Shown: piece by piece, positions 29,999 through 44,113 of the stretch | Layout of the letters: each line of letters opens with the position of its first letter | Position numbering within the stretch: position 1 is the first letter of the stretch | Source of the DNA: a virus | Virus record (IMG/VR): IMGVR_UViG_3300028422_000241 | Strand: one strand, 5' to 3' | DNA: 44,113 bases | Position numbers and translations under genes: made by a program | Notes under the pieces: model-generated | Databases searched by the model: none | Seen by the model: the letters and a program-made list of their open reading frames with translations, nothing else | Told to the model about the DNA's origin: nothing

Positions 29999-30661
29999 AT
30001 GGCGGTTAAAGTTTGCCCTGTGTGTGGAGCACAAACAAAGTGTAAAATCAAGGCTGCAAACGGGTATATTTGCGCCTCGTGTACCTGGCTAAGCCCTAAT
30101 TACTCGGCCGAAACAATAGAAGTGTTGGCGGGCTACCAACGGGAACAGAGCCAACGCAGAGCTTTGTTTTCAAAAACAAGGGTAATAAAAAGCCTTTTGA
30201 GTGATACTATATGTGTTGACGATAACAACAAACTTTTCTATGTCGGAAAAGAAAAAGAGGAGCGCCCCATCATTTACCGGTTTAATGAGGTGCAGGGCTG
30301 CGAGATGGAAAGCCAAACAAAAACGGTTACAAAGAAAAAGGGCGGGCTCGGCCGGGCTGTTGTAGGTGGCGCTCTTTTCGGTGGCGTGGGTGCCGTTGTC
30401 GGTGCATCCACGGCCAAGGAGGTTACTACCCAGCAAAATGGTCCGAGCCACTTAAACGTGCAGCTCAAAACTTATGCCGGAAATAAGATCCTCACACTTT
30501 ACTCCCCGCCCATGGGTGCGGATCAGTTTTTCAATATCTGCTCAAACGAAACGGCCCCGGATGGCGTTGATGAAATACTGAAATACAAAAAGCTGCTTGA
30601 TGAGGGCATAATTACACCGGAGCAGTTTGAGGCTAAAAAACGGGATCTGCTAAACCTATGA
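29999..30661 (+). CDS. DUF4428 zinc-ribbon / glycine-zipper / SHOCT-domain protein
   Basis: N-terminal CPVCG...CASC, central GGLGRAVVGGALFGGVGAVVGAS, and a C-terminal SHOCT-like segment LKYKKLLDEGIITPEQFEAKKRDLL. Confidence 0.65.
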   Translation: MAVKVCPVCGAQTKCKIKAANGYICASCTWLSPNYSAETIEVLAGYQREQSQRRALFSKTRVIKSLLSDTICVDDNNKLFYVGKEKEERPIIYRFNEVQGCEMESQTKTVTKKKGGLGRAVVGGALFGGVGAVVGASTAKEVTTQQNGPSHLNVQLKTYAGNKILTLYSPPMGADQFFNICSNETAPDGVDEILKYKKLLDEGIITPEQFEAKKRDLLNL

Positions 30662-32253
30662 GCAAGAGCAAATTAGCCGTTGTGTATGCCCGGTACTCAA
30701 GCCACCGGCAGGGCGAGCAGAGCATTGAGGGGCAGCTCGCTGAGGCTTATAAGTACGCCGAGGCACACGGCATGAAAATAATACACGAGTATGTTGACCG
30801 GGCCATGACTGGCCGGAATGATAACCGGGATCAATTCCAGGAAATGCTCAAGGACACGGCCAAGAAACAATTTGATGCCGTCATACTGTGGAAAATAGAT
30901 CGTTTTGGCCGTAACCGTGAGGAGATCGCTTTCAACAAATACCGCTGCAAAAAGAACGGTGTCAAGGTTGTATATGTTGCCGAGAGCATCCCGGACAGCC
31001 CGGAGGGCGTTATCCTGGAAAGCGTGCTTGAGGGCATGGCCGAGTATTACAGCCTGCAGCTGTCCCAGAACATACGCCGAGGCAACCGGGCAAGTGCAGA
31101 GAAGTGCCAGAGCACCGGAGGCAACCGGCCGCTGGGATATAAAACGGATCCGGAAACAAAGCGCTTTGTTATTGATCCGGACACGGCGCCCACGGTCCGC
31201 ATGATCTTTGAGTGGTACGCCCAGGGCAAAACTATTGCTGAGATTATTACCGAGCTTAACAACATGGGGCTCCGTACCCTGCGCGGCGGTAAATTCACAA
31301 AGAACAGCCTGCACTCATTACTGAAAAATGAGAAGTATATCGGCATTTATGCTTACAAGGATGAAATACGGATTGAGGGAGGAGTCCCTGCCATAATTGA
31401 TGCTGAAACATTCGCAAAGGTGCAAAGTATGCTGAAAGTAAATAAAAGGGCCCCAGCGCATACCTGGAGCCGTGCAGACTATTTACTCACTGATAAACTT
31501 TTCTGTGGCCACTGCGGCTCAAGAATGGTGGGCGAAAGCGGAACGAGTAAAACCGGCGCAAAGCATAATTATTATATCTGCACCAAGCGCAAGCGTGAGC
31601 GCACCTGCGATAAAAAGGCGATCCGGCAGGAAGTTATTGAGCAAAGTGTGCTGGAAAAGGTAACGGGGATATTGCACGATGATGATCTGCTTAACTTCAT
31701 TGCCGATGGGGTATATGCCTATTACCAGGAGCAGAACGCCGAAAACGATTTTGAGGCGAGCCTTAAAAAGCAGCTTGCTGAGATTGACAAGGCCACGGCC
31801 AATATTGTAAAAGCAATCGAGGCCGGCATATTCAACGATGCCACAAAAAAGCGCATGGATGAGCTGGATGCGCAGCGTGAAGAAATTAACGCCGAGCTTT
31901 CACATTACGAGCTTGTACGGTCCTGGCAGCTCACCCGGGATCACATTCTGTTTTTCTTGTATCAATTCCGCGACATGGATATTACCAACCAGGACTGCCA
32001 AAAGCGGCTTGTTGATACTTTTGTTAATGCCGTATTTGTGTATGACGATGGTCGACCCCCGCTGCTCACGTTAAACTATTCCGGCGATAGTCGCACGGTA
32101 TCATTGGACGATATAACCGGGTTAAATGCCGAGGGGGCAGAGTTCGTATACCGTGCGGAATGTTCCACCATAACGCACACATACGAACCCCTAAAAATAG
32201 TGGTTTATCGTAATGTGTTTGCAATTCAACTTGAAAAAACCGAGAGGGTGTAA
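30658..32253 (+). CDS. int: Large serine recombinase (integrase)
   Basis: N-terminal resolvase domain AVVYARYSSHRQ containing the catalytic Ser. Recombinase and zinc-ribbon (CGHCG...YYIC) regions follow. 531 aa. Confidence 0.93.
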   Translation: MSKSKLAVVYARYSSHRQGEQSIEGQLAEAYKYAEAHGMKIIHEYVDRAMTGRNDNRDQFQEMLKDTAKKQFDAVILWKIDRFGRNREEIAFNKYRCKKNGVKVVYVAESIPDSPEGVILESVLEGMAEYYSLQLSQNIRRGNRASAEKCQSTGGNRPLGYKTDPETKRFVIDPDTAPTVRMIFEWYAQGKTIAEIITELNNMGLRTLRGGKFTKNSLHSLLKNEKYIGIYAYKDEIRIEGGVPAIIDAETFAKVQSMLKVNKRAPAHTWSRADYLLTDKLFCGHCGSRMVGESGTSKTGAKHNYYICTKRKRERTCDKKAIRQEVIEQSVLEKVTGILHDDDLLNFIADGVYAYYQEQNAENDFEASLKKQLAEIDKATANIVKAIEAGIFNDATKKRMDELDAQREEINAELSHYELVRSWQLTRDHILFFLYQFRDMDITNQDCQKRLVDTFVNAVFVYDDGRPPLLTLNYSGDSRTVSLDDITGLNAEGAEFVYRAECSTITHTYEPLKIVVYRNVFAIQLEKTERV

Positions 32254-33575: not shown

Positions 33576-33822
33576 AACATTCTCTCGCGCGCGTGCGTAT
33601 ACACGCCGTATATAGGCGGTTAGGCGGTATTCTACCCCTCTATACTGTCTATTTAACACTCTATAAGAAAAAATGTTAGAATGTTAGAAAAGTACAAAAA
33701 ACCTTGTAGCGGCTTGGGTTTGCCGCCTAACAATTCACCTAACAATTAAAGCGCGAAATGTTAGAATGTTTTTAACATTTATACATGAAAAACAAAATGT
33801 TAGATGCTAATTGTTAGAAAAA
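33573..33822. repeat. Iteron-rich non-coding region, copy B (paralog of 17525-17795)
   Basis: Exact ATGTTAGA at 33673, 33681, 33758 and 33797. ATTGTTAGA at 33810. CCTAACAATT at 33726 and 33738. Shares blocks with copy A, including cgcgcgcgtgcgtata, aggcggttaggc, aaatgttagaatgttagaaaagta and aacatttatacatgaaaa. Confidence 0.85.
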
Positions 33823-34175
33823 CCGATGGGGTTAGTTACCCCCCCCACCGGTTTATTAAAGGCATCGTTAAACTCTGCAAGGGCCGCCTCAATCAACATA
33901 CGCATCTCAAGATCTGTAATGGTGATGCCCTTTTCTGCCAACATTTCAGAGGCAGATGCAAGAGCCATGTTGAGCTTTTCCTCACCGTGCAGATCGGTGT
34001 ATATCTGCTCAACCGCCTTAACAACGATCCTGGCCACCGCCTGCTTTGTCTTGTCATTTATGTACTTGGTGTACAGCTGCTTTGCTACAACACCGAGGTA
34101 CCCGGCAAGCGCGGTGAGTACGGCATACAAAATTGTTGGGCCGTATTCGGAAATAAAAACATTCAGAAATGCCAT
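33807..34175 (-). CDS. Holin (LL-H family-like)
   Basis: 122 aa. N-terminal TM segment (GPTILYAVLTALAGYLGVV) followed by an amphipathic helical region. Adjacent to the endolysin gene. Confidence 0.75.
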   Translation of the reverse strand: MAFLNVFISEYGPTILYAVLTALAGYLGVVAKQLYTKYINDKTKQAVARIVVKAVEQIYTDLHGEEKLNMALASASEMLAEKGITITDLEMRMLIEAALAEFNDAFNKPVGGVTNPIGFSNN

Positions 34176-34188
34176 TTTGTGATCCTCC

Positions 34189-35295
34189 TTAGATCTTAGT
34201 TAAATATTTTTTATCAACTGCGCCGGTGACAGCGCCAGTTTTCAACGTGGAAATTACCACCCTTGAGCCGTTGATCTCACGCACATACAGTGTTGAGCTG
34301 TACACCCATGAGGCAAAGGTCGAGGTTTTGCCGTACACCGGAGCGCCGGCCTGCATACGCACCTTGTCACCAACAGCCAGGGTGCTGCTTACGGGTGCCG
34401 GAGTGGCTGCCACTGCTTGGCCTCCCTGGCCCGTGATAAATGTATCAAAGCCGGCGGCTTTAATCTTGCTCAGCATAGCCTCGGCGTTAGCTTTGTTGCT
34501 GTACGCGCCAACCTGTACCTTATGGAGCCCTCCGCTCGTCACAAGGTAGGTGTCAAAGCCTTTTGCCTTGAGCTTTGCGGCCAGGGCATCCGCATTGGCT
34601 TTTAAACCAAAAGCACCCGTTTGCACACGGTACAGGGTACCGGCAGCCGCAGGTGTTTCAACCTTTGCATTACCTGCATCAAGCAGCTTTTGCACCTCTG
34701 CTCTGAACCAGTCCATTGTTTTGCCAAAGGGCTTGAGCCAGTTGTGCGGGTCCCCATGGTTGCCGCCGTACCCGGCGAGGTAGCTTTCCTGGTGGCTGCT
34801 GATCTTGTCCACACCAAAGCTGTACAGCTTGCAGAGGTAAGCGCAAAACTCCTGCGCCTCTTTCATAACGGCGCTGAAATAGGCCTCATCGTTCAGCCCG
34901 TCCTCGCACATTTCAAACTGCACCCGGGCTGTGGGGTTGTAGTTGTAGGATCCTTTTGATCCGGATCCAACGCCCCAGCAACAAATATCAAAGGGGAGTG
35001 TTTGGTATGTTTCAACCTTGCCGGCTGCATTTACGCCAATAAAGGCGTGAACGCACACAGAACGCCCCAGCTGTGCCGCCGGCATATTCCAGTGGTTGTT
35101 ATAGAGGTTAGTGCCAATATCGGCTATAATGGCCGCATAATCGGCATCGGTTTTGAGCGGCTGCACATACCGCTTGAGGGTTTTGTTGTTGGCCCCCGTG
35201 GAGTGCACCACAATGCCGGTGGGTTTTCCACCGGTCATTTTTGTGCCCTTTTTGTAACAGTCATTTGCAGTTAGGATGCATTTTTTAAGTGTCAT
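34189..35295 (-). CDS. Endolysin: N-acetylmuramoyl-L-alanine amidase (Amidase_2/PGRP-like) with SPOR and SH3-like wall-binding domains
   Basis: GIVVHSTG...SSHQE...GNHGDPHNW amidase motifs. SPOR-like segment YRVQTGAFGLKANADALAAKLKAKGFDTYL...VQVGAY. Confidence 0.88.
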   Translation of the reverse strand: MTLKKCILTANDCYKKGTKMTGGKPTGIVVHSTGANNKTLKRYVQPLKTDADYAAIIADIGTNLYNNHWNMPAAQLGRSVCVHAFIGVNAAGKVETYQTLPFDICCWGVGSGSKGSYNYNPTARVQFEMCEDGLNDEAYFSAVMKEAQEFCAYLCKLYSFGVDKISSHQESYLAGYGGNHGDPHNWLKPFGKTMDWFRAEVQKLLDAGNAKVETPAAAGTLYRVQTGAFGLKANADALAAKLKAKGFDTYLVTSGGLHKVQVGAYSNKANAEAMLSKIKAAGFDTFITGQGGQAVAATPAPVSSTLAVGDKVRMQAGAPVYGKTSTFASWVYSSTLYVREINGSRVVISTLKTGAVTGAVDKKYLTKI

Positions 35296-35815: not shown

Positions 35816-36184
35816 TTATACCCCCTCATCAATGCCAAAGAGGATAAAGTCCACAGCCTCCATGGTGCTGCCTAAAGCCTCTTTGAGCCTTTCGTTTTCT
35901 GCCTCCAGCGCAGCAATGCGCTCACCCTCTGTGGGTGGTTTCTGCGGTGTCGGAGCCTGCCACGATGCTGCGGTGTCATACCACGCATTAAAATCTGCAG
36001 CAATTTCCTGCTCTGTGGCTGAGGTAAGCATATAAACCTCATCGGCCTCATAGCTCACCGCGCCCGTTTCGCTGTCAACAGTTTCGGTTATGTTTTTGCG
36101 CATCCAGAGATCGGCATCCCCGGAGGGCAGGCTCATATACTTAATACTGTCCGGGCGTTGTGTGTAAAACGCTTTTGTGATCAT
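35816..36184 (-). CDS. Hypothetical acidic protein (XkdW-position)
   Basis: 122 aa. AAGGAG lies 9 nt before ATG 36184. The start overlaps the RT 3' end by 44 nt. Confidence 0.5.
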   Translation of the reverse strand: MITKAFYTQRPDSIKYMSLPSGDADLWMRKNITETVDSETGAVSYEADEVYMLTSATEQEIAADFNAWYDTAASWQAPTPQKPPTEGERIAALEAENERLKEALGSTMEAVDFILFGIDEGV

Positions 36185-37289
36185 TGTTTGCCACTCCTTT
36201 TTTAGCCTCTCGGCTTATTGTTTTTCTTGCAGCCTTAAACACCTCTTTAAGGTGTAAAGCAATAGCAACCCTGTGAGAATTGGTGTACTTAAAATAGCCC
36301 CTGTATGAAACGATCCGGCGGGCATTTTGCAGGAATATGCAAAGCCCTGCCTGCATACGCCTCCAGGCTCTTATTAGCGCCCTGCGAGCGCGTATAAAGG
36401 TGCGTGCCCGTATTGTTGTGCACTCTTTGCCCACAACAAAGCCCATCATATCCGGCGGCTCCTTGGCCGTCTGTTTGATATGGTGGGCCGGTTTAATGGT
36501 AAGGCCTAACTGCTTGAAAAGGTACTCCTCAAACAGCTTAGAGGCCATTTTAAGATCGCGCTTTGATGGTCCGGTTATATACACATCATCCATAAACATA
36601 AGTATGTGGGCTATAAGGTTTTGCCGCTTGCCCCGGCGCTCCTTGTACAGCTGCTCTGAGGCATAATGGTAAGCGTATGACATTACATAGTTGCAAAGCC
36701 ACTGGCTTAAAAAGCTGCCTATTGAGAGGCCGTGTTCATAGGATCCGACAAGAGCAAGCACAAACCATATAAGCACCGGGTTTTTGTGTATATCACGCTC
36801 CAGCAGTTTGCGGATCGTGCGGCTGCTTATGCTTTCAAAGCAATGCCGCACGTCCATTTTGTCATAATACTTGGTGCCCCTGGGATCCGTCCGGATCCAC
36901 TTCTCAAGGGCTTTTTTACCGTAAATTTGGCCGCGCCCCGGTACGCTTGCGCACTGAAACACGCCAACCTTTGCCTTTAACATTGGCATGAGCGCATACA
37001 CCGCAACATAATTCATACACTGCTGCATAGCACTTTCAATGCCGAGCCTGCGGAGTTTTCCGCTGCTTTTGTCTATCCGGTCACGATAGTGTATAGGCGG
37101 CAGATCAAGATCACGGGCTTTTATACGCTCCGTGATCTCAGCCGCTATGCCGTGGGCTCCTCCGTACCTCGCGGAAAGCCTTTGAAAGCCAGGCCTGCGC
37201 CGCTTTTTAGGATCTGAAATACAGAGGTTTACCCACGGCTCTATTGTGTCGGGATCTGTTATATCAACATTCTTACAGTATGTTTTCAC
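36141..37289 (-). CDS. DGR reverse transcriptase
   Basis: Motifs SVPGRGQIYG, KMDVRHCFESIS, GLSIGSFLSQ (the DGR-type IGxxxSQ) and MFMDDVYI. GTG 37289 lies 6 nt after AGGAGG. Directly follows the TR. Confidence 0.92.
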   Translation of the reverse strand: MKTYCKNVDITDPDTIEPWVNLCISDPKKRRRPGFQRLSARYGGAHGIAAEITERIKARDLDLPPIHYRDRIDKSSGKLRRLGIESAMQQCMNYVAVYALMPMLKAKVGVFQCASVPGRGQIYGKKALEKWIRTDPRGTKYYDKMDVRHCFESISSRTIRKLLERDIHKNPVLIWFVLALVGSYEHGLSIGSFLSQWLCNYVMSYAYHYASEQLYKERRGKRQNLIAHILMFMDDVYITGPSKRDLKMASKLFEEYLFKQLGLTIKPAHHIKQTAKEPPDMMGFVVGKECTTIRARTFIRARRALIRAWRRMQAGLCIFLQNARRIVSYRGYFKYTNSHRVAIALHLKEVFKAARKTISREAKKGVANNDHKSVLHTTPGQY

Positions 37290-37460
37290 AAAACCCCTCC
37301 TAAATATCGTCTGGTTGAGCACAAGGGCTTTCGGTTTGCTCTACTAACCCCAGGAGCAGCCTTGTTATGCTGCCCCTCCTTGCGGTGCCGGTTCAAGCTC
37401 AATTTTTGGGTTATTAGCCCAAGGAATGTACTGCGTAATAAATTAAATATCTTACCAGAT

Positions 37461-37565
37461 GCGCGGGCGCCGATGTTCCAGTTAGCATTGGCGAGGCCAT
37501 TGTTCAAATTAGCACAAGCCAGGCCGCTGTTGCCGGCATTGTTCAGATTACCGAAAGCCTGCCAC
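37461..37565 (-). repeat. DGR template repeat (TR)
   Basis: 105 bp, non-coding. In the VR frame it reads WQAFGNLNNAGNSGLACANLNNGLANANWNIGARA, with 10 AAY codons. Confidence 0.92.
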
Positions 37566-37608
37566 AGCATGGACAAAGGGCACGAGGGTCCACAGCACAT
37601 CCCTGTAT

Positions 37609-37652
37609 GAGGGGCTACCGCCCCTCTATACGGCGGCCTACGCCGCCGTATA
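37609..37652 (-). promoter_or_regulatory. Two abutting GC-rich hairpins with 4-nt loops just 3' of the VR
   Basis: 37627-37652: TATACGGCGGC-GUAG-GCCGCCGTATA (11-bp stem, with the target stop codon TAG in the loop). 37609-37626: GAGGGGC-GGUA-GCCCCTC (7-bp stem). No U-run follows either hairpin. Confidence 0.7.
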
Positions 37653-39410
37653 TTCACCCCGATTGCCACCGGAGCCACACGCGCGGGCGCCGATGCCCCA
37701 GTAAGCACTGGCGAGGCCACCGCCCAAATCAGCACAAGCCAGGCCGCTGAGGCCGGCATCGGCCAGAGAACCGAAAGCCAGCCACTCACGCCAGCCAATG
37801 GTATTTTGCGCATCGCGGTATGTAGCGCACCGGTAGCCGGTTGTTGAGCTGCCGGCAAGCAGGGTGGGTATCATGTATTTTTCTTGACTGTTAGCACTCC
37901 AGCTAAGCTCCGCATTATATGCCCAGGCGGCTGTTTCCTCTTTGGGGATAGTGCCGAGGGTAACGGGGCTGGTGCCGGCATTAGCGCTTGCAATGTGGGC
38001 GGCTCTGCGGTTAGCATAAACCGTATAGCCGTTTACGGCATCCTCATAAAGTGTGGTGTCTGCCGGTATCTCGTACATACCAAGCATAACCTCAATGCCC
38101 TGCAGCTTAAACGGCTCTTTGCCGCTGGTGTTGTTTGTCGGGCTGCCATCGTTGCCCTGTACCTCGTCTGTGGCGCCTGTAAGCCACGGCTGAGGGTTAA
38201 TAGCGGTAACACCAACAACCGTGTTAAAAGTGCCCTCTATGGCTAAATTAACGGCCTTATAGGCGGTGCTTTCAATGGTGACATCCTCAATGCTTGCAAT
38301 GGTTGCAATGTCGCATACATCGTAACAGGTGGCTTTGGATCTGTCTGTTTCGGTTCCGAGTGATACCCGGCTGCCGACAACAAAGAAAGCAGCCTGCGGA
38401 GCAGTTAAGAGTATACGTTTTACACCGGTTTCCGACACGGCAGCCGTGTAAGAGGTGTAATAAGAACGGCAGCCGCTCATTTTGGTTGCGTTTCCGAGGT
38501 CCGCATATTTGATCTCAAGCATAAGCTGTAAAAATGCAATGTCACAGAGGGAGGATCCACAATACTGATTGCCCCACTCACGCCACTTTGCAATTTGCCC
38601 ATCATGGCTGATCGAGGTTGATCCTACCGATCCGGTTCTCAAGGTTGCGGGCTGTACACCGGAAATGCTGGACAGCTTGCCGGCTGTGTTATAACCGGCG
38701 GCATACTTTGCATGAATGACAAAGCCGCGCACGGAATTGTCAGCAGCTCTCACGGCCTCCGGTAAGGGCTCAAAACCCTCTGTTTCCTGCGCCCTGTATT
38801 CAACCTTTTTGGTTGTTTCGGTTGTGGTGCGGCGTACCCATCCGGTCATTTGCATAACACCCACAAGGCTGCTTGCAGGCGTTGCAGAAAACGTGCCATA
38901 AACGCCTTTTATCGCCGTAATAACAGGCTCGAGGGTATCAGCATCAATGGTATAGTTGACGTCATGCACCATGAACAGCGTGAGGCTTGCGTAATCGTCT
39001 GTACCGGGTGCGGCAATGGTGCCGGGGGTGCAGGTGAGTGTCGCATTATCATCCTGTTTTGTACCAAGAGGGCTGTTGCTGGTTGCATACTTGTAAAACT
39101 CTGTTGTATAGGTTTCATTGATTGTTTTAGCGGCCGCCTTGTAAAAGCGGTCGGCAATGTCTGCGAGGCTGCTGTCCTTGCTTGCCGCATTTGCCTGCAC
39201 AAACATCTTAAACGCCTCTTTAGCCCCGTATTTTTCAATCAATATGGGGACTATAAAAAGATCGTTTGTGTCATTCGCACGCACGCTGCCCAGGGGTAAA
39301 CGGTAGAGCGCCATCAGCCCGTTTGTATCGGGCTGCACGCCCAGCACATACGCCTGCTCACTCACTTCATCGGGGATCGGCTTTTCAATTACAGAAACAG
39401 TGTTTGCCAT
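37638..39410 (-). CDS. DGR target protein: tail-module (putative receptor-binding) protein with a C-terminal variable region
   Basis: 590 aa, AAGGAGG RBS. The VR lies 13 codons before the C-terminus, ending ...WLAFGSLADAGLSGLACADLGGGLASAYWGIGARACGSGGNRGEYTAA. Located downstream of the tail fibre gene. Confidence 0.85.
   Translation of the reverse strand: MANTVSVIEKPIPDEVSEQAYVLGVQPDTNGLMALYRLPLGSVRANDTNDLFIVPILIEKYGAKEAFKMFVQANAASKDSSLADIADRFYKAAAKTINETYTTEFYKYATSNSPLGTKQDDNATLTCTPGTIAAPGTDDYASLTLFMVHDVNYTIDADTLEPVITAIKGVYGTFSATPASSLVGVMQMTGWVRRTTTETTKKVEYRAQETEGFEPLPEAVRAADNSVRGFVIHAKYAAGYNTAGKLSSISGVQPATLRTGSVGSTSISHDGQIAKWREWGNQYCGSSLCDIAFLQLMLEIKYADLGNATKMSGCRSYYTSYTAAVSETGVKRILLTAPQAAFFVVGSRVSLGTETDRSKATCYDVCDIATIASIEDVTIESTAYKAVNLAIEGTFNTVVGVTAINPQPWLTGATDEVQGNDGSPTNNTSGKEPFKLQGIEVMLGMYEIPADTTLYEDAVNGYTVYANRRAAHIASANAGTSPVTLGTIPKEETAAWAYNAELSWSANSQEKYMIPTLLAGSSTTGYRCATYRDAQNTIGWREWLAFGSLADAGLSGLACADLGGGLASAYWGIGARACGSGGNRGEYTAA
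37681..37785 (-). repeat. DGR variable repeat (VR)
   Basis: 105 bp. It differs from the TR at 17 positions, all of them TR adenines on the coding strand. Confidence 0.92.
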
Positions 39411-39829: not shown

Positions 39830-41113
39830 TTATCTTAATGCAATATAGTAATAGTAATGGCCGCTTTCATTCGAGCGTATTTCATTACTTATATATTGGT
39901 TCACCCTAAAGCCGTTGCCCACAATGCCGAGCACACAATAATAGTTGCTCCATGAGGTTATGTAAGCGTTATCGGCGTTACGGCTAATTACGTTATAGCC
40001 GCGGAGTGCCAAACCACCGTGCAGATCGTCCACGTCATCGTGGGTGTTCCCCTCGGCATCAAAGAGCAAAACCGCTTTTGGATAAAAGCCGAGATCGATA
40101 ACACGGGCCTGGGTGTTGTCACCCTGGTACACACCCGTTACAAAAAGGTTATCAGCCACCAAGGACAAGAGGGCGCTTTGCGTTGTAACACCCGTGCCAC
40201 CCATTGAAATTGGCAGCGTTCCAAATATCGGGTTGCCGTTAGAGGGTGAGTATAAAGCACCGGTGCCCCTCACCGTCAGCATTGCATCGCCGCCATTGCT
40301 TTTAAGCAGGCCGCCGGAGGTCGGGTTAGTAAGACCGGTACCGCCACGCAAAGGGGAAAGCACACCGGCGTTGATGTCAACAGTGCTGTGGGTGTGTGAC
40401 TGTGCGGCAGCTCCGGCCTGTGCAGCGGTAACGCCATGGGGGTTGCTCCGGTTGTTTATGTGGTTGATCAAGTTTGTAATTGCCAGCTTGATTTTTCCAA
40501 AGGCAGTGGAGATCTTTTCACCCGATGTAAGGGTTGCAAAGGTGCTTGCCTGGTCATATGTGGGTGTCTGGTCATTGGTTGCCACATTCGGCACGTTACC
40601 GAGCCCCACCTGCGTTTTTGTAACGCTGTGGGGGTTTGAAGTGTTCCCGGTGTGGGCGTTGAAGTCTGCGGCAGAGGCATAAACAAGGGAACTGTTAATG
40701 GCCGCCGCCACGTTCTCTGCATCGCCTACAAAGATAAGGGCATCAAACTGCATTTCAAGTATGCGGTTTGTGTTACTCGGCACATAGTCTGCCGTGCTTT
40801 CGTCCTCGTTGCCGATAGCATAAAGGATCTCGGCGCTTTCGTTGTCCGGATCTTCTGCAAAAAACCCCGCCTCTGTGATGTGAAAGCCGTCTGTAATAGC
40901 GCTGTTGGTAAATGAGCCGGTAAGCGTTACATATTCATCGCCTACCTCCATATTTGAAATGGGCAGCGTAATAACCGGGTTTGAAAGCCCGGTTGCAGCT
41001 TTGGCCTCCTGGGGTGCGCCGTTGCCAAGCTGTATTTTGGTAAAGTTAATGGTTTCACCGGTTAAAGCTCTGAGCAATAGGTTTTTGCCGGCCGCCGTTA
41101 AGTTAGGTGTCAT
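39830..41113 (-). CDS. Tail fibre protein
   Basis: N-terminus LTAAGKNLLLRALTGETINFTKIQLGNG is tail-collar/fibre-like. Repeated SNPH(S/G)VT motif. ATGA overlap with the XkdU-like gene. Confidence 0.8.
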   Translation of the reverse strand: MTPNLTAAGKNLLLRALTGETINFTKIQLGNGAPQEAKAATGLSNPVITLPISNMEVGDEYVTLTGSFTNSAITDGFHITEAGFFAEDPDNESAEILYAIGNEDESTADYVPSNTNRILEMQFDALIFVGDAENVAAAINSSLVYASAADFNAHTGNTSNPHSVTKTQVGLGNVPNVATNDQTPTYDQASTFATLTSGEKISTAFGKIKLAITNLINHINNRSNPHGVTAAQAGAAAQSHTHSTVDINAGVLSPLRGGTGLTNPTSGGLLKSNGGDAMLTVRGTGALYSPSNGNPIFGTLPISMGGTGVTTQSALLSLVADNLFVTGVYQGDNTQARVIDLGFYPKAVLLFDAEGNTHDDVDDLHGGLALRGYNVISRNADNAYITSWSNYYCVLGIVGNGFRVNQYISNEIRSNESGHYYYYIALR

Positions 41114-43772: not shown

Positions 43773-44113
43773 CCCTCAATTTTAACTCCATGAGGTGCTG
43801 CCCATCCTTAAAACTGTGCTTAACCTGTTCCACCATTAAGAAGTTTGAAAGGTTAATATCACCCAGCCCGAGTATGACAACCAGCATTGTGCCGGCACGC
43901 ACTCTCGTATCACCAAGGGCGTTTTTAATGCTCAAAGTGCGTGTTTTTGCATTGTACAATTTAAGCAAAGCATCTGCCATGGTTTTTGCGTTGGTCGCAT
44001 CGTCCAGCTTTTCAAAATACTGCAGCACGCCCCATTTGCTTATATTGGATCCGTCCTGTGCAATGAACACCTGGCGGGTTCCGGCATCACTGTCCTCATA
44101 TGTGAGTTTAATT
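43753..44113 (-). CDS. XkdQ-like tail/baseplate protein, C-terminal part (same gene as 1-749; 43970-44113 duplicates 1-144)
   Basis: The frame is open from the window end to the stop at 43753 and in frame with 1-749 across the junction. Confidence 0.75.
   Translation of the reverse strand, partial: IKLTYEDSDAGTRQVFIAQDGSNISKWGVLQYFEKLDDATNAKTMADALLKLYNAKTRTLSIKNALGDTRVRAGTMLVVILGLGDINLSNFLMVEQVKHSFKDGQHLMELKLRGGKFVT
43970..44113. repeat. Terminal overlap, identical to 1-144
   Basis: Verbatim 144-nt match with the start of the window. Confidence 0.97.

Follow-up and report, generated by a model that had tools for sequence, protein, structure and literature searches.

The 44,113-nt stretch IMGVR_UViG_3300028422_000241, hereafter the window in its full length, very probably carries an active or recently active diversity-generating retroelement (DGR) of the accessory-free type, in which a template region (TR) is followed by a reverse transcriptase (RT) gene and no avd gene is found. 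All elements of the cassette lie on the minus strand and all coordinates below are those of the window, itself a complete 44-kb temperate myophage genome. Activity is shown by comparison between genomes: a sibling phage has the same TR and a variable region (VR) that differs only at sites templated by adenines. In setting and target type the element is ordinary and belongs to a well-known kind of system, gut phages being a known DGR hotspot and tail proteins whose fold is that of C-type lectins (CLec) a known kind of target (PMC8144416). For annotation, a DGR label for this locus is safe. Added value lies in a fold for a large unannotated target family, in a clean comparative demonstration of activity and in covarying RNA elements around the TR.

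A preliminary description of this DNA had called the element complete. TR, VR, RT and target are all present; an avd gene is not, so the word holds for the accessory-free architecture only.

The repeat pair and evidence for homing

The non-coding TR (37461-37565) and the VR (37681-37785) align without gaps over 105 nt with 17 mismatches, every one of them at a TR adenine. The base composition of the TR is A23 C30 G30 T22; 17 of these 23 adenines are changed in the VR, and the 82 positions with C, G or T all agree. The VR bases at the mismatch sites are G (ten), T (four) and C (three). The same pair was returned by an independent repeat finder, lengthened to 111 nt (37455-37565 and 37675-37785). 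When each A of the TR is allowed to be any base, the resulting pattern matches the TR and VR sites only, with no match expected by chance in the 44-kb window, and the phage therefore has no remote VR there.

The coding frame begins at the second base of the 105-nt interval. In this frame, the TR reads WQAFGNLNNAGNSGLACANLNNGLANANWNIGAR(A), including ten AAY codons, and the VR reads WLAFGSLADAGLSGLACADLGGGLASAYWGIGARA. It makes up codons 543-577 of the 590 in the target open reading frame (ORF; 37638-39410), whose remaining 13 codons (CGSGGNRGEYTAA), up to the stop, are invariant. Substitutions from TR to VR are confined to codon positions 1 and 2. Besides the AAY codons, TR adenines occur in one CAG, in AGC (S555) and in ATC (I573).

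Much of this had been anticipated in the preliminary description: re-alignment returned its exact coordinates for the two repeats and its 17 adenine-site mismatches (a tally by TR base gave zero non-A mismatches), translation gave the ten AAY codons and peptide strings as it had read them, and the VR does lie 13 codons before the C-terminus of its ORF. A whole-genome pattern search for the further TR-like copies it had considered gave TR and VR alone. Its repertoire of roughly 10^12 peptides, more exactly about 2x10^12, which counted one CAG beyond the AAY codons, was too low. Because AGC and ATC carry TR adenines too, three extra codons enter the calculation and the theoretical repertoire rises to 15^10 x 4^3 = 3.7x10^13 peptides.

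Both repeats close with the same GC-only 11-mer, GGCGCCCGCGC. Together with the next six nucleotides, GTGTGG, it forms the 3′ boundary of the VR (37675-37691), whereas the TR continues with ATCTGG; the 6-nt flanks thus differ at two positions, one A-to-G and one C-to-G from TR to VR. This pattern of a common end followed by divergence, also pointed out in the preliminary description, is like that of the element for initiation of mutagenic homing (IMH) and its counterpart IMH*, and by likeness to the BPP-1 IMH the VR boundary may well serve this function (PMC5758913).

Relatives for comparison were collected via protein searches; neither the 50,697 deposited phage genomes, queried with the cassette by megablast, nor viral contigs, scanned with the exact A-degenerate TR core pattern, gave a match. 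The closest sibling, L106 (SRR5947154), is colinear with the window; between target start and RT end (3270 nt), their identity is 97.9%. TR and spacer show no difference between the two, and the VR shows 14, all at sites templated by TR adenines. For the VR this amounts to a divergence of 13%, against 2.9% over the remainder of the target and 0.4% for the RT. Because the sibling has an identical TR but 14 A-site VR differences at only ~2% overall divergence, homing was very recent in this lineage. The TR is also identical in L001-L003, and two prophages from metagenome-assembled genomes (MAGs), L020 and L021, have a common TR and different VRs.

The same signature extends to distant relatives, each of which has its own TR/VR pair, with non-A changes of the TR mirrored in the VR. 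Among 80 RT-relative loci on viral contigs (36-84% identity), 68 have a TR/VR pair of this A-only type directly upstream of the RT, and those that lack the cassette are mostly truncated upstream. Over 65 distinct pairs, 888 mismatches hit TR adenines, 58% of all those present, and 82 hit C, G or T; one TR is paired with 11 distinct VRs. At the protein level, target clusters built at 90% identity (1204, 60 and 52 members) show columns with at least four residue types exclusively at A-templated (AAY) VR codons. Polymorphism limited to A sites, which the preliminary description had proposed to look for in reads, is thus seen in this comparison between genomes both against L106 and inside the clusters.

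Two side observations follow. Clusters P0052, P0009 and P0051 hold many distinct sequences from few contigs (1204 members vs three contigs of the representative). Such member-rich, contig-poor clusters are the database mark of DGR hypervariation and could be used for bulk discovery of DGR targets. In L013 (IMGVR_UViG_3300029705_002220, 1752-1856), the 3′ third of the TR is identical to the phage's own VR, its adenines there being lost, and the TR has 16 A rather than 23. Either a VR-to-TR back-copy froze those codons or a repeat collapse gave an assembly chimera.

Reverse transcriptase and structured RNA

The RT gene (36141-37289) starts with GTG, preceded by a GGAGG ribosome-binding site, and encodes a basic protein of 382 aa (isoelectric point, pI, 10.0) that matches RVT_1 of Pfam and phrog_1423 (8e-58). 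Its motifs comprise R80, IGSFLSQ (I190-Q196) and FMDD (232-235), the latter two as named in the preliminary description. The signature [I/V/L]GxxxSQ distinguishes DGR RTs from other RTs, which have QGxxxSP instead (PMC7826257). In a profile built from 41 relatives (39-84% identity), R80, I190, G191, M233, D234 and D235 show no variation and S195 and Q196 hardly any. Searched against PDB, this family profile ranks bRT, the DGR RT of a Bordetella phage, first (8ub7; E 3.4e-23, 85 bits), ahead of the group II intron protein LtrA (7.7e-11) and a retron-type RT (7.7e-10). In bRT, R74 and I181 promote adenine mutagenesis (PMC7826257), and the profile alignment equates them with R80 and I190.

A search with the single sequence had placed the group II intron maturase 6me0 (6.8e-6) and TIGR04416 (5.7e-14) ahead of bRT (0.027). 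This apparent group II intron affinity was set aside as misleading, since the family profile reversed the ranking and put bRT first by 12 orders of magnitude. NCBIfam and PADLOC matches of the RT also stay far under the family cut-offs (52 bits vs 300 and 25 vs 235), and no PADLOC RT model exceeds 35 bits. Judged by these sequence comparisons, the RT groups with DGR RTs and not with those of group II introns, retrons or Abi/DRT systems, in line with what the preliminary description had assumed. Using tblastn, relatives were found in the deposited phages Butyrivibrio phage Arawn, Lactobacillus LBR48, Faecalibacterium FP_Epona and Bacteroides phage p00, the best RT identity to any deposited phage genome being 36%. 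Some of these four presumably carry described DGRs.

Avd or another accessory gene is present in about 70% of DGRs and is thus not universal. Here, the neighbouring ORFs gave no match to Avd or a four-helix bundle in Pfam, NCBIfam or PHROGs, although Avd is poorly conserved and a very divergent one could escape; ten basic small ORFs elsewhere in the genome gave no such match in Pfam either. The small ORFs that flank the cassette are acidic, and the distance from VR to TR, 220 nt here and 191-283 nt in 68 relatives, is too short for an avd gene. Since accessory-free cassettes are a recognized architecture that accounts for about 29% of DGRs, the absence of Avd is a known variant, not a defect: Architecture A, which lacks accessory genes, comprises 75 of 372 surveyed DGRs, and one whole RT lineage is devoid of avd (Wu et al. 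2018, PMC5758913). As those authors noted, an avd-free lineage implies an Avd-independent mechanism (PMC5758913).

Directly after the RT, and overlapping its stop codon by 44 nt, lies a 122-aa ORF (orf122, 35816-36184, minus strand) that is acidic (pI 4.1) and belongs to phrog_37768. A homolog directly follows the RT in 16 of the 80 RT-relative loci, including ones at only 39-52% RT identity. Its position corresponds to the XkdW-like slot of PBSX-type tail/lysis junctions, before the XkdX-like orf50, the XhlA-like orf101, the amidase and the holin. Being acidic, without a known family and present after the RT in those 16 loci only, orf122 was left out as a candidate DGR accessory factor; it is probably a tail/lysis-junction gene, though some accessory part in the DGR is conceivable.

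Several nucleic acid structures surround the repeats. Two tandem GC-rich hairpins (37609-37652) start 28 nt past the VR, with a DNA folding energy of -27.5 kcal/mol (z = -3.2). The first (37627-37652) reads TATACGGCGGC-GTAG-GCCGCCGTATA, a perfect 11-bp stem with the target stop codon TAG in its 4-nt loop; its 5′ arm codes for conserved C-terminal residues of the target, and in relatives the 3′ arm tracks it by compensatory changes, e.g. from ACGGCGGC/GCCGCCGT to ACGCCGGC/GCCGGCGT. The second reads GAGGGGC-GGTA-GCCCCTC. No T-tract follows the hairpins, which were not called as terminators, and no equivalent hairpins are found after the TR. In BPP-1, a GC-rich inverted repeat enhances homing (PMC5758913), and the post-VR hairpins match this element, suggesting by analogy a similar role.

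On the RNA level, the segment AGGGATGTGCTGTG (37591-37604), located 25 nt upstream of the TR, can pair with positions +25 to +38 (37422-37435) of the spacer (Sp) between TR and RT (37290-37460), which also holds small covarying hairpins. In nine relatives, RNAalifold recovers an 11-bp duplex of 37591-37601 with 37425-37435 (spacer +25 to +35), in which 98% of alignment cells are paired and three pairs are compensatory. Distant clades have helices of 8-16 bp at the same relative position, built from unrelated sequences, and helix length is significant in 9 of 17 representatives. The duplex resembles the 'cPRT stop' duplex of the bRT-Avd ribonucleoprotein (RNP), described in a study whose RNA survey took in Avd-containing DGRs only (bioRxiv 10.1101/2023.10.23.563531); the conserved spacer RNA elements of Avd-less DGRs described here were accordingly not part of it. 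TR flanks are conserved like coding sequence, and the spacer motifs AAAATTGAG, AACCGGCACCG and GGTTAGTAGA..AACCGAAAGCC are kept down to 37% RT identity. Rfam returned no family for the TR/spacer region at E <= 1, which makes the spacer a candidate for a new structured RNA family tied to this clade of DGR RTs.

A further helix may form between TCTGGT (37454-37459), directly 3′ of the TR, and ACCAGA (37310-37315) at the 3′ end of the spacer. Both strands covary among relatives (TTTGGT/ACCAAA, TATGGT/ACCATA, TTCTTGA/TCAAGAA, CTGAAA/TTTCAG and others); for five helices in the nine-sequence alignment, 96.4% of cells are paired compared to 37-49% when the 3′ partners are slid, and six pairs show double changes. 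In most cases the last base of the 3′ strand is A, which calls to mind the adenosine that primes in BPP-1. Alignment-free z-scores of duplex energy are weak, with medians of -0.8 for this helix and -0.2 for the stop-like duplex. As helix-length tests are mostly non-significant and energy z-scores weak, it is positional covariation that makes this helix a candidate template:primer duplex.

The 2018 survey left open how a DGR that lacks Avd functions, and covarying RNA flanks make this question experimentally approachable, with concrete elements at 37591-37604 (pairing with spacer 37422-37435) and at 37454-37459 (pairing with spacer 37310-37315). For DGR biology, the compact Avd-less cassette is one that nature samples very well. 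It is conceivable, though we put this forward as a tentative idea, that the RT clade, with at least 470 relatives on viral contigs that all show the order VR-TR-Sp-RT without room for avd, represents a self-sufficient Avd-less DGR core, in which a differently wired spacer RNA and the basic N- and C-terminal extensions of the RT position the template:primer duplex in Avd's stead. Equally tentative is the corresponding RNA arrangement, in which the spacer might join the stop-like duplex with a purine-ended, pseudoknotted helix between TR flank and spacer 3′ end. If true, a 382-aa protein and an RNA of ~320 nt would constitute a minimal natural DGR and an attractive chassis for targeted-mutagenesis tools.

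The diversified target and a proposed mechanism

The 590-aa target (37638-39410) matches phrog_17147 (1.9e-106), whose function is unassigned in PHROGs, and phrog_5302, a 'tail protein'. As a single sequence, it found no match in Pfam, NCBIfam, PADLOC or PDB sequence searches, with FGE-sulfatase and DUF1566 of Pfam absent even at E <= 10. For residues 264-590, on the other hand, 583 representatives of clusters built at 50% identity are homologous at E <= 1e-3. A first AlphaFold2 model, made from a shallow multiple sequence alignment of 62-96% identical homologs, had a pLDDT of 64 (below 50 in the VR region) and gave meaningless Foldseek matches, and was dropped. Using an alignment of 150 sequences that included the 50%-cluster representatives, residues 95-590 were modelled with a pLDDT of 97.3 and a pTM of 0.95. 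Foldseek searches of PDB with this model returned three chains of TaqVP (5VF4) as the sole matches below 1e-3 (E 1.2e-5, probability 1.0), and Mtd at rank 22 (E = 1). TaqVP is the CLec-fold variable protein, of the FGE subtype, of a Thermus aquaticus prophage DGR (PMC6328139). A CLec-like fold, suspected in the preliminary description, is thus what the only significant fold match in PDB indicates.

In the target, a variable N-terminal anchor of ~95 aa precedes a beta-rich body and a TaqVP-like CLec fold, of which the VR forms the C-terminal strand-loop. A sequence profile independently aligns a segment upstream of the target VR with TaqVP core residues 63-128 and sets the VR itself, G-x-G-A-R ending included, against that of TaqVP (342-381). 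Predicted structure and profile fit a CLec core of the FGE subtype that is broken by large inserts, as in TaqVP (TM 0.47-0.49 on TaqVP length). Differences from TaqVP are a sequence identity of 14%, the added ~150-residue beta-rich N-terminal body and virion-anchor segment, the 13 variable residues here compared to 9, and the presence of Avd in the TaqVP DGR. The previously unannotated gene and its family (>580 clusters at 50% identity, no Pfam model) can be labelled as a TaqVP-like CLec-fold DGR variable protein of phage tail fibres.

The tetrapeptide WREW occurs twice in the target, in KWREWGNQY (38562-38588, residues 275-283) and in GWREWLAFG (37770-37796, residues 539-547), both times in or beside the segments aligned to the CLec core and VR of TaqVP. 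The motif is reminiscent of WEW, which stands ahead of the VR in DGR targets of the FGE type.

In a viral structure library, the target model had 36 matches, mostly annotated as 'tail collar fiber' proteins of gut phages or tail fibre proteins of crAss-like phages, and some as TvpA-like or FGE-like. Relatives carry the target module fused to BppU_N baseplate anchors (five relatives), collagen repeats or head-fibre domains. By analogy with these proteins, a ligand-binding role on the virion surface is well supported, and the position of the gene, its fold and the N-terminal fusions of its relatives point to receptor binding and thus to host range.

Comparison with the DGR of BPP-1 (mtd-avd-TR-brt) reveals common principles, namely adenine-specific mutagenic retrohoming from an AAY-rich TR to a C-terminal VR in a tail protein with CLec fold, a GC-rich IMH-like boundary with a GC-rich inverted repeat after the VR only, an RT with IGxxxSQ and the equivalents of R74 and I181, and a structured TR-RT spacer RNA with a duplex between spacer and sequence upstream of the TR. 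Unlike BPP-1, the present element has no avd gene and, with 220 nt between VR and TR, no room for one; its RT has 54 aa more and additional segments at both termini; its target resembles TaqVP rather than Mtd; and the candidate primer helix, instead of being nested in the stop-like duplex, would cross it. The order target-TR-RT without avd, HRDC, MSL or CH1 is that of Architecture A (PMC5758913). Temperate gut phages of Bacillota and Bacteroides (Faecalibacterium Lagaffe, Mushu, Roos and Epona; Hankyphage; viral DGR clades 1, 4 and 6 of Roux et al. 2021) similarly have DGRs that adjoin tail genes and act on tail-fibre-like CLec targets, but the target family described here, which lacks a Pfam model, is not of the DUF6273, Ig-like or Mtd-like type. 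No richer source of DGRs than gut phages is known, and CLec targets among tail fibres are the rule.

From these elements, the following course of events can be proposed. An RNA of about 37290-37610, comprising upstream segment, TR and spacer, would be made, probably within a late tail-fibre transcript, because a scan for promoters and terminators found none between target and RT. In this RNA, the duplex of upstream segment and spacer +25 to +38, supported by covariation, would bracket the TR, and the nucleotides immediately 3′ of the TR would pair with the purine-ending spacer strand. By analogy, these folds may act like the stop ('cPRT stop') and cis-priming duplexes of the Bordetella phage bRT-Avd RNP, respectively. 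The 382-aa RT would then copy the TR into cDNA and misincorporate opposite adenines, as the A-specific outcome and the conservation of R80 and I190 suggest. The cDNA would replace the VR, with the GC-rich IMH-like end and the two hairpins presumably marking the VR and not the TR as recipient. As a result, 13 codons (ten AAY, CAG, AGC and ATC) on the CLec-fold tip of a virion fibre protein could be recoded into up to 3.7x10^13 variants, most likely altering receptor or ligand specificity.

Alternative readings and genomic setting

Several points weigh against a working Avd-less DGR that diversifies a receptor-binding protein. Neither Avd nor another known accessory gene was found in the 44-kb genome, and we know of no reconstitution of an Avd-independent DGR mechanism. 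All three contigs that have an identical RT and include the VR carry the same VR. The candidate primer helix is just 6-10 bp long and mostly not significant on its own against shuffled sequences; a local hairpin of 4 bp (37449-37460) competes with it, and together with the stop-like duplex it would make a pseudoknot, where BPP-1 has a nested order. Lastly, the case for receptor binding is built from the position of the gene, its fold and what relatives carry fused at their N-termini. The uniform VR of the three contigs and the missing Avd gene are also what would be expected if the locus were a DGR by descent that is now inactive in this genome, its VR differences being a fossil of past homing. 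We regard this as unlikely, given that the RT ORF is intact with all catalytic and DGR-specific residues, that the TR keeps all ten AAY codons and is the same in a sibling with 14 A-site VR differences, and that spacer RNA and hairpins are intact as well. Far less likely still, to the point of being negligible, is that an ordinary duplication or gene-conversion tract happens to lie near an RT of group II intron, retron or defence type that is unrelated to it. Apart from the single-sequence scores that favour a group II intron maturase (6me0, TIGR04416) over bRT and weak matches to retron and DRT models, everything speaks against such a coincidence: mismatches fall at one base of one copy in 17 of 17 cases here and in 888 of 970 across relatives, the family profile places bRT at the top by its wide margin, NCBIfam and PADLOC scores remain far below cut-off, the motif is IGxxxSQ and not QGxxxSP, neither intron RNA, a maturase/endonuclease domain nor a retron msr/msd is present, and the cassette architecture is kept in 68 of 80 relatives.

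A weightier alternative concerns the target, which may not bind a host receptor at all but be an adhesin on the virion surface, directed at mucus, glycans or other cells, or a non-structural protein. In keeping with this idea are the separate tail-fibre gene (427 aa) just upstream, the head-fibre or collagen-like N-termini of some relatives and the adhesin roles proposed for other gut-phage DGR targets (PMC10743442, PMC11792537). We nevertheless consider it rather improbable, as the target gene directly follows the baseplate and tail-fibre genes, most of its structural neighbours bear tail collar or tail fibre annotations, BppU_N baseplate-anchor domains occur in five relatives and the paradigm, Mtd, is a receptor-binding protein.

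Because its first and last 144 bases are identical (1-144 = 43970-44113), the window (GC content 50%) is the complete genome, circularly closed or terminally redundant, of a temperate myophage of ~44.0 kb. Its tail genes encode sheath, tape measure, baseplate J, Mu Gp48-like, PBSX-like YQBQ and DUF2577 proteins, and head and portal proteins as well as a replication module are present. The target gene is preceded by the tail fibre gene (39830-41113, 427 aa) and two small ORFs. Downstream of the RT follow three small ORFs, an endolysin with Amidase_2 and SPOR domains (34189-35295, minus strand) and a holin (33807-34175, minus strand, Phage_holin_6_1). Annotation of these neighbours bears out the location between the tail fibre gene and the lysis genes given in the preliminary description. 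MAGs with relatives of the target belong to Oscillospiraceae, Ruminococcus, Acutalibacteraceae and other Clostridia, pointing to a temperate myophage of gut Clostridia of the Oscillospiraceae/Ruminococcaceae type as the carrier. Like endolysin and holin, a serine integrase (30658-32253, plus strand, phrog_95) represents an ordinary temperate-phage function.

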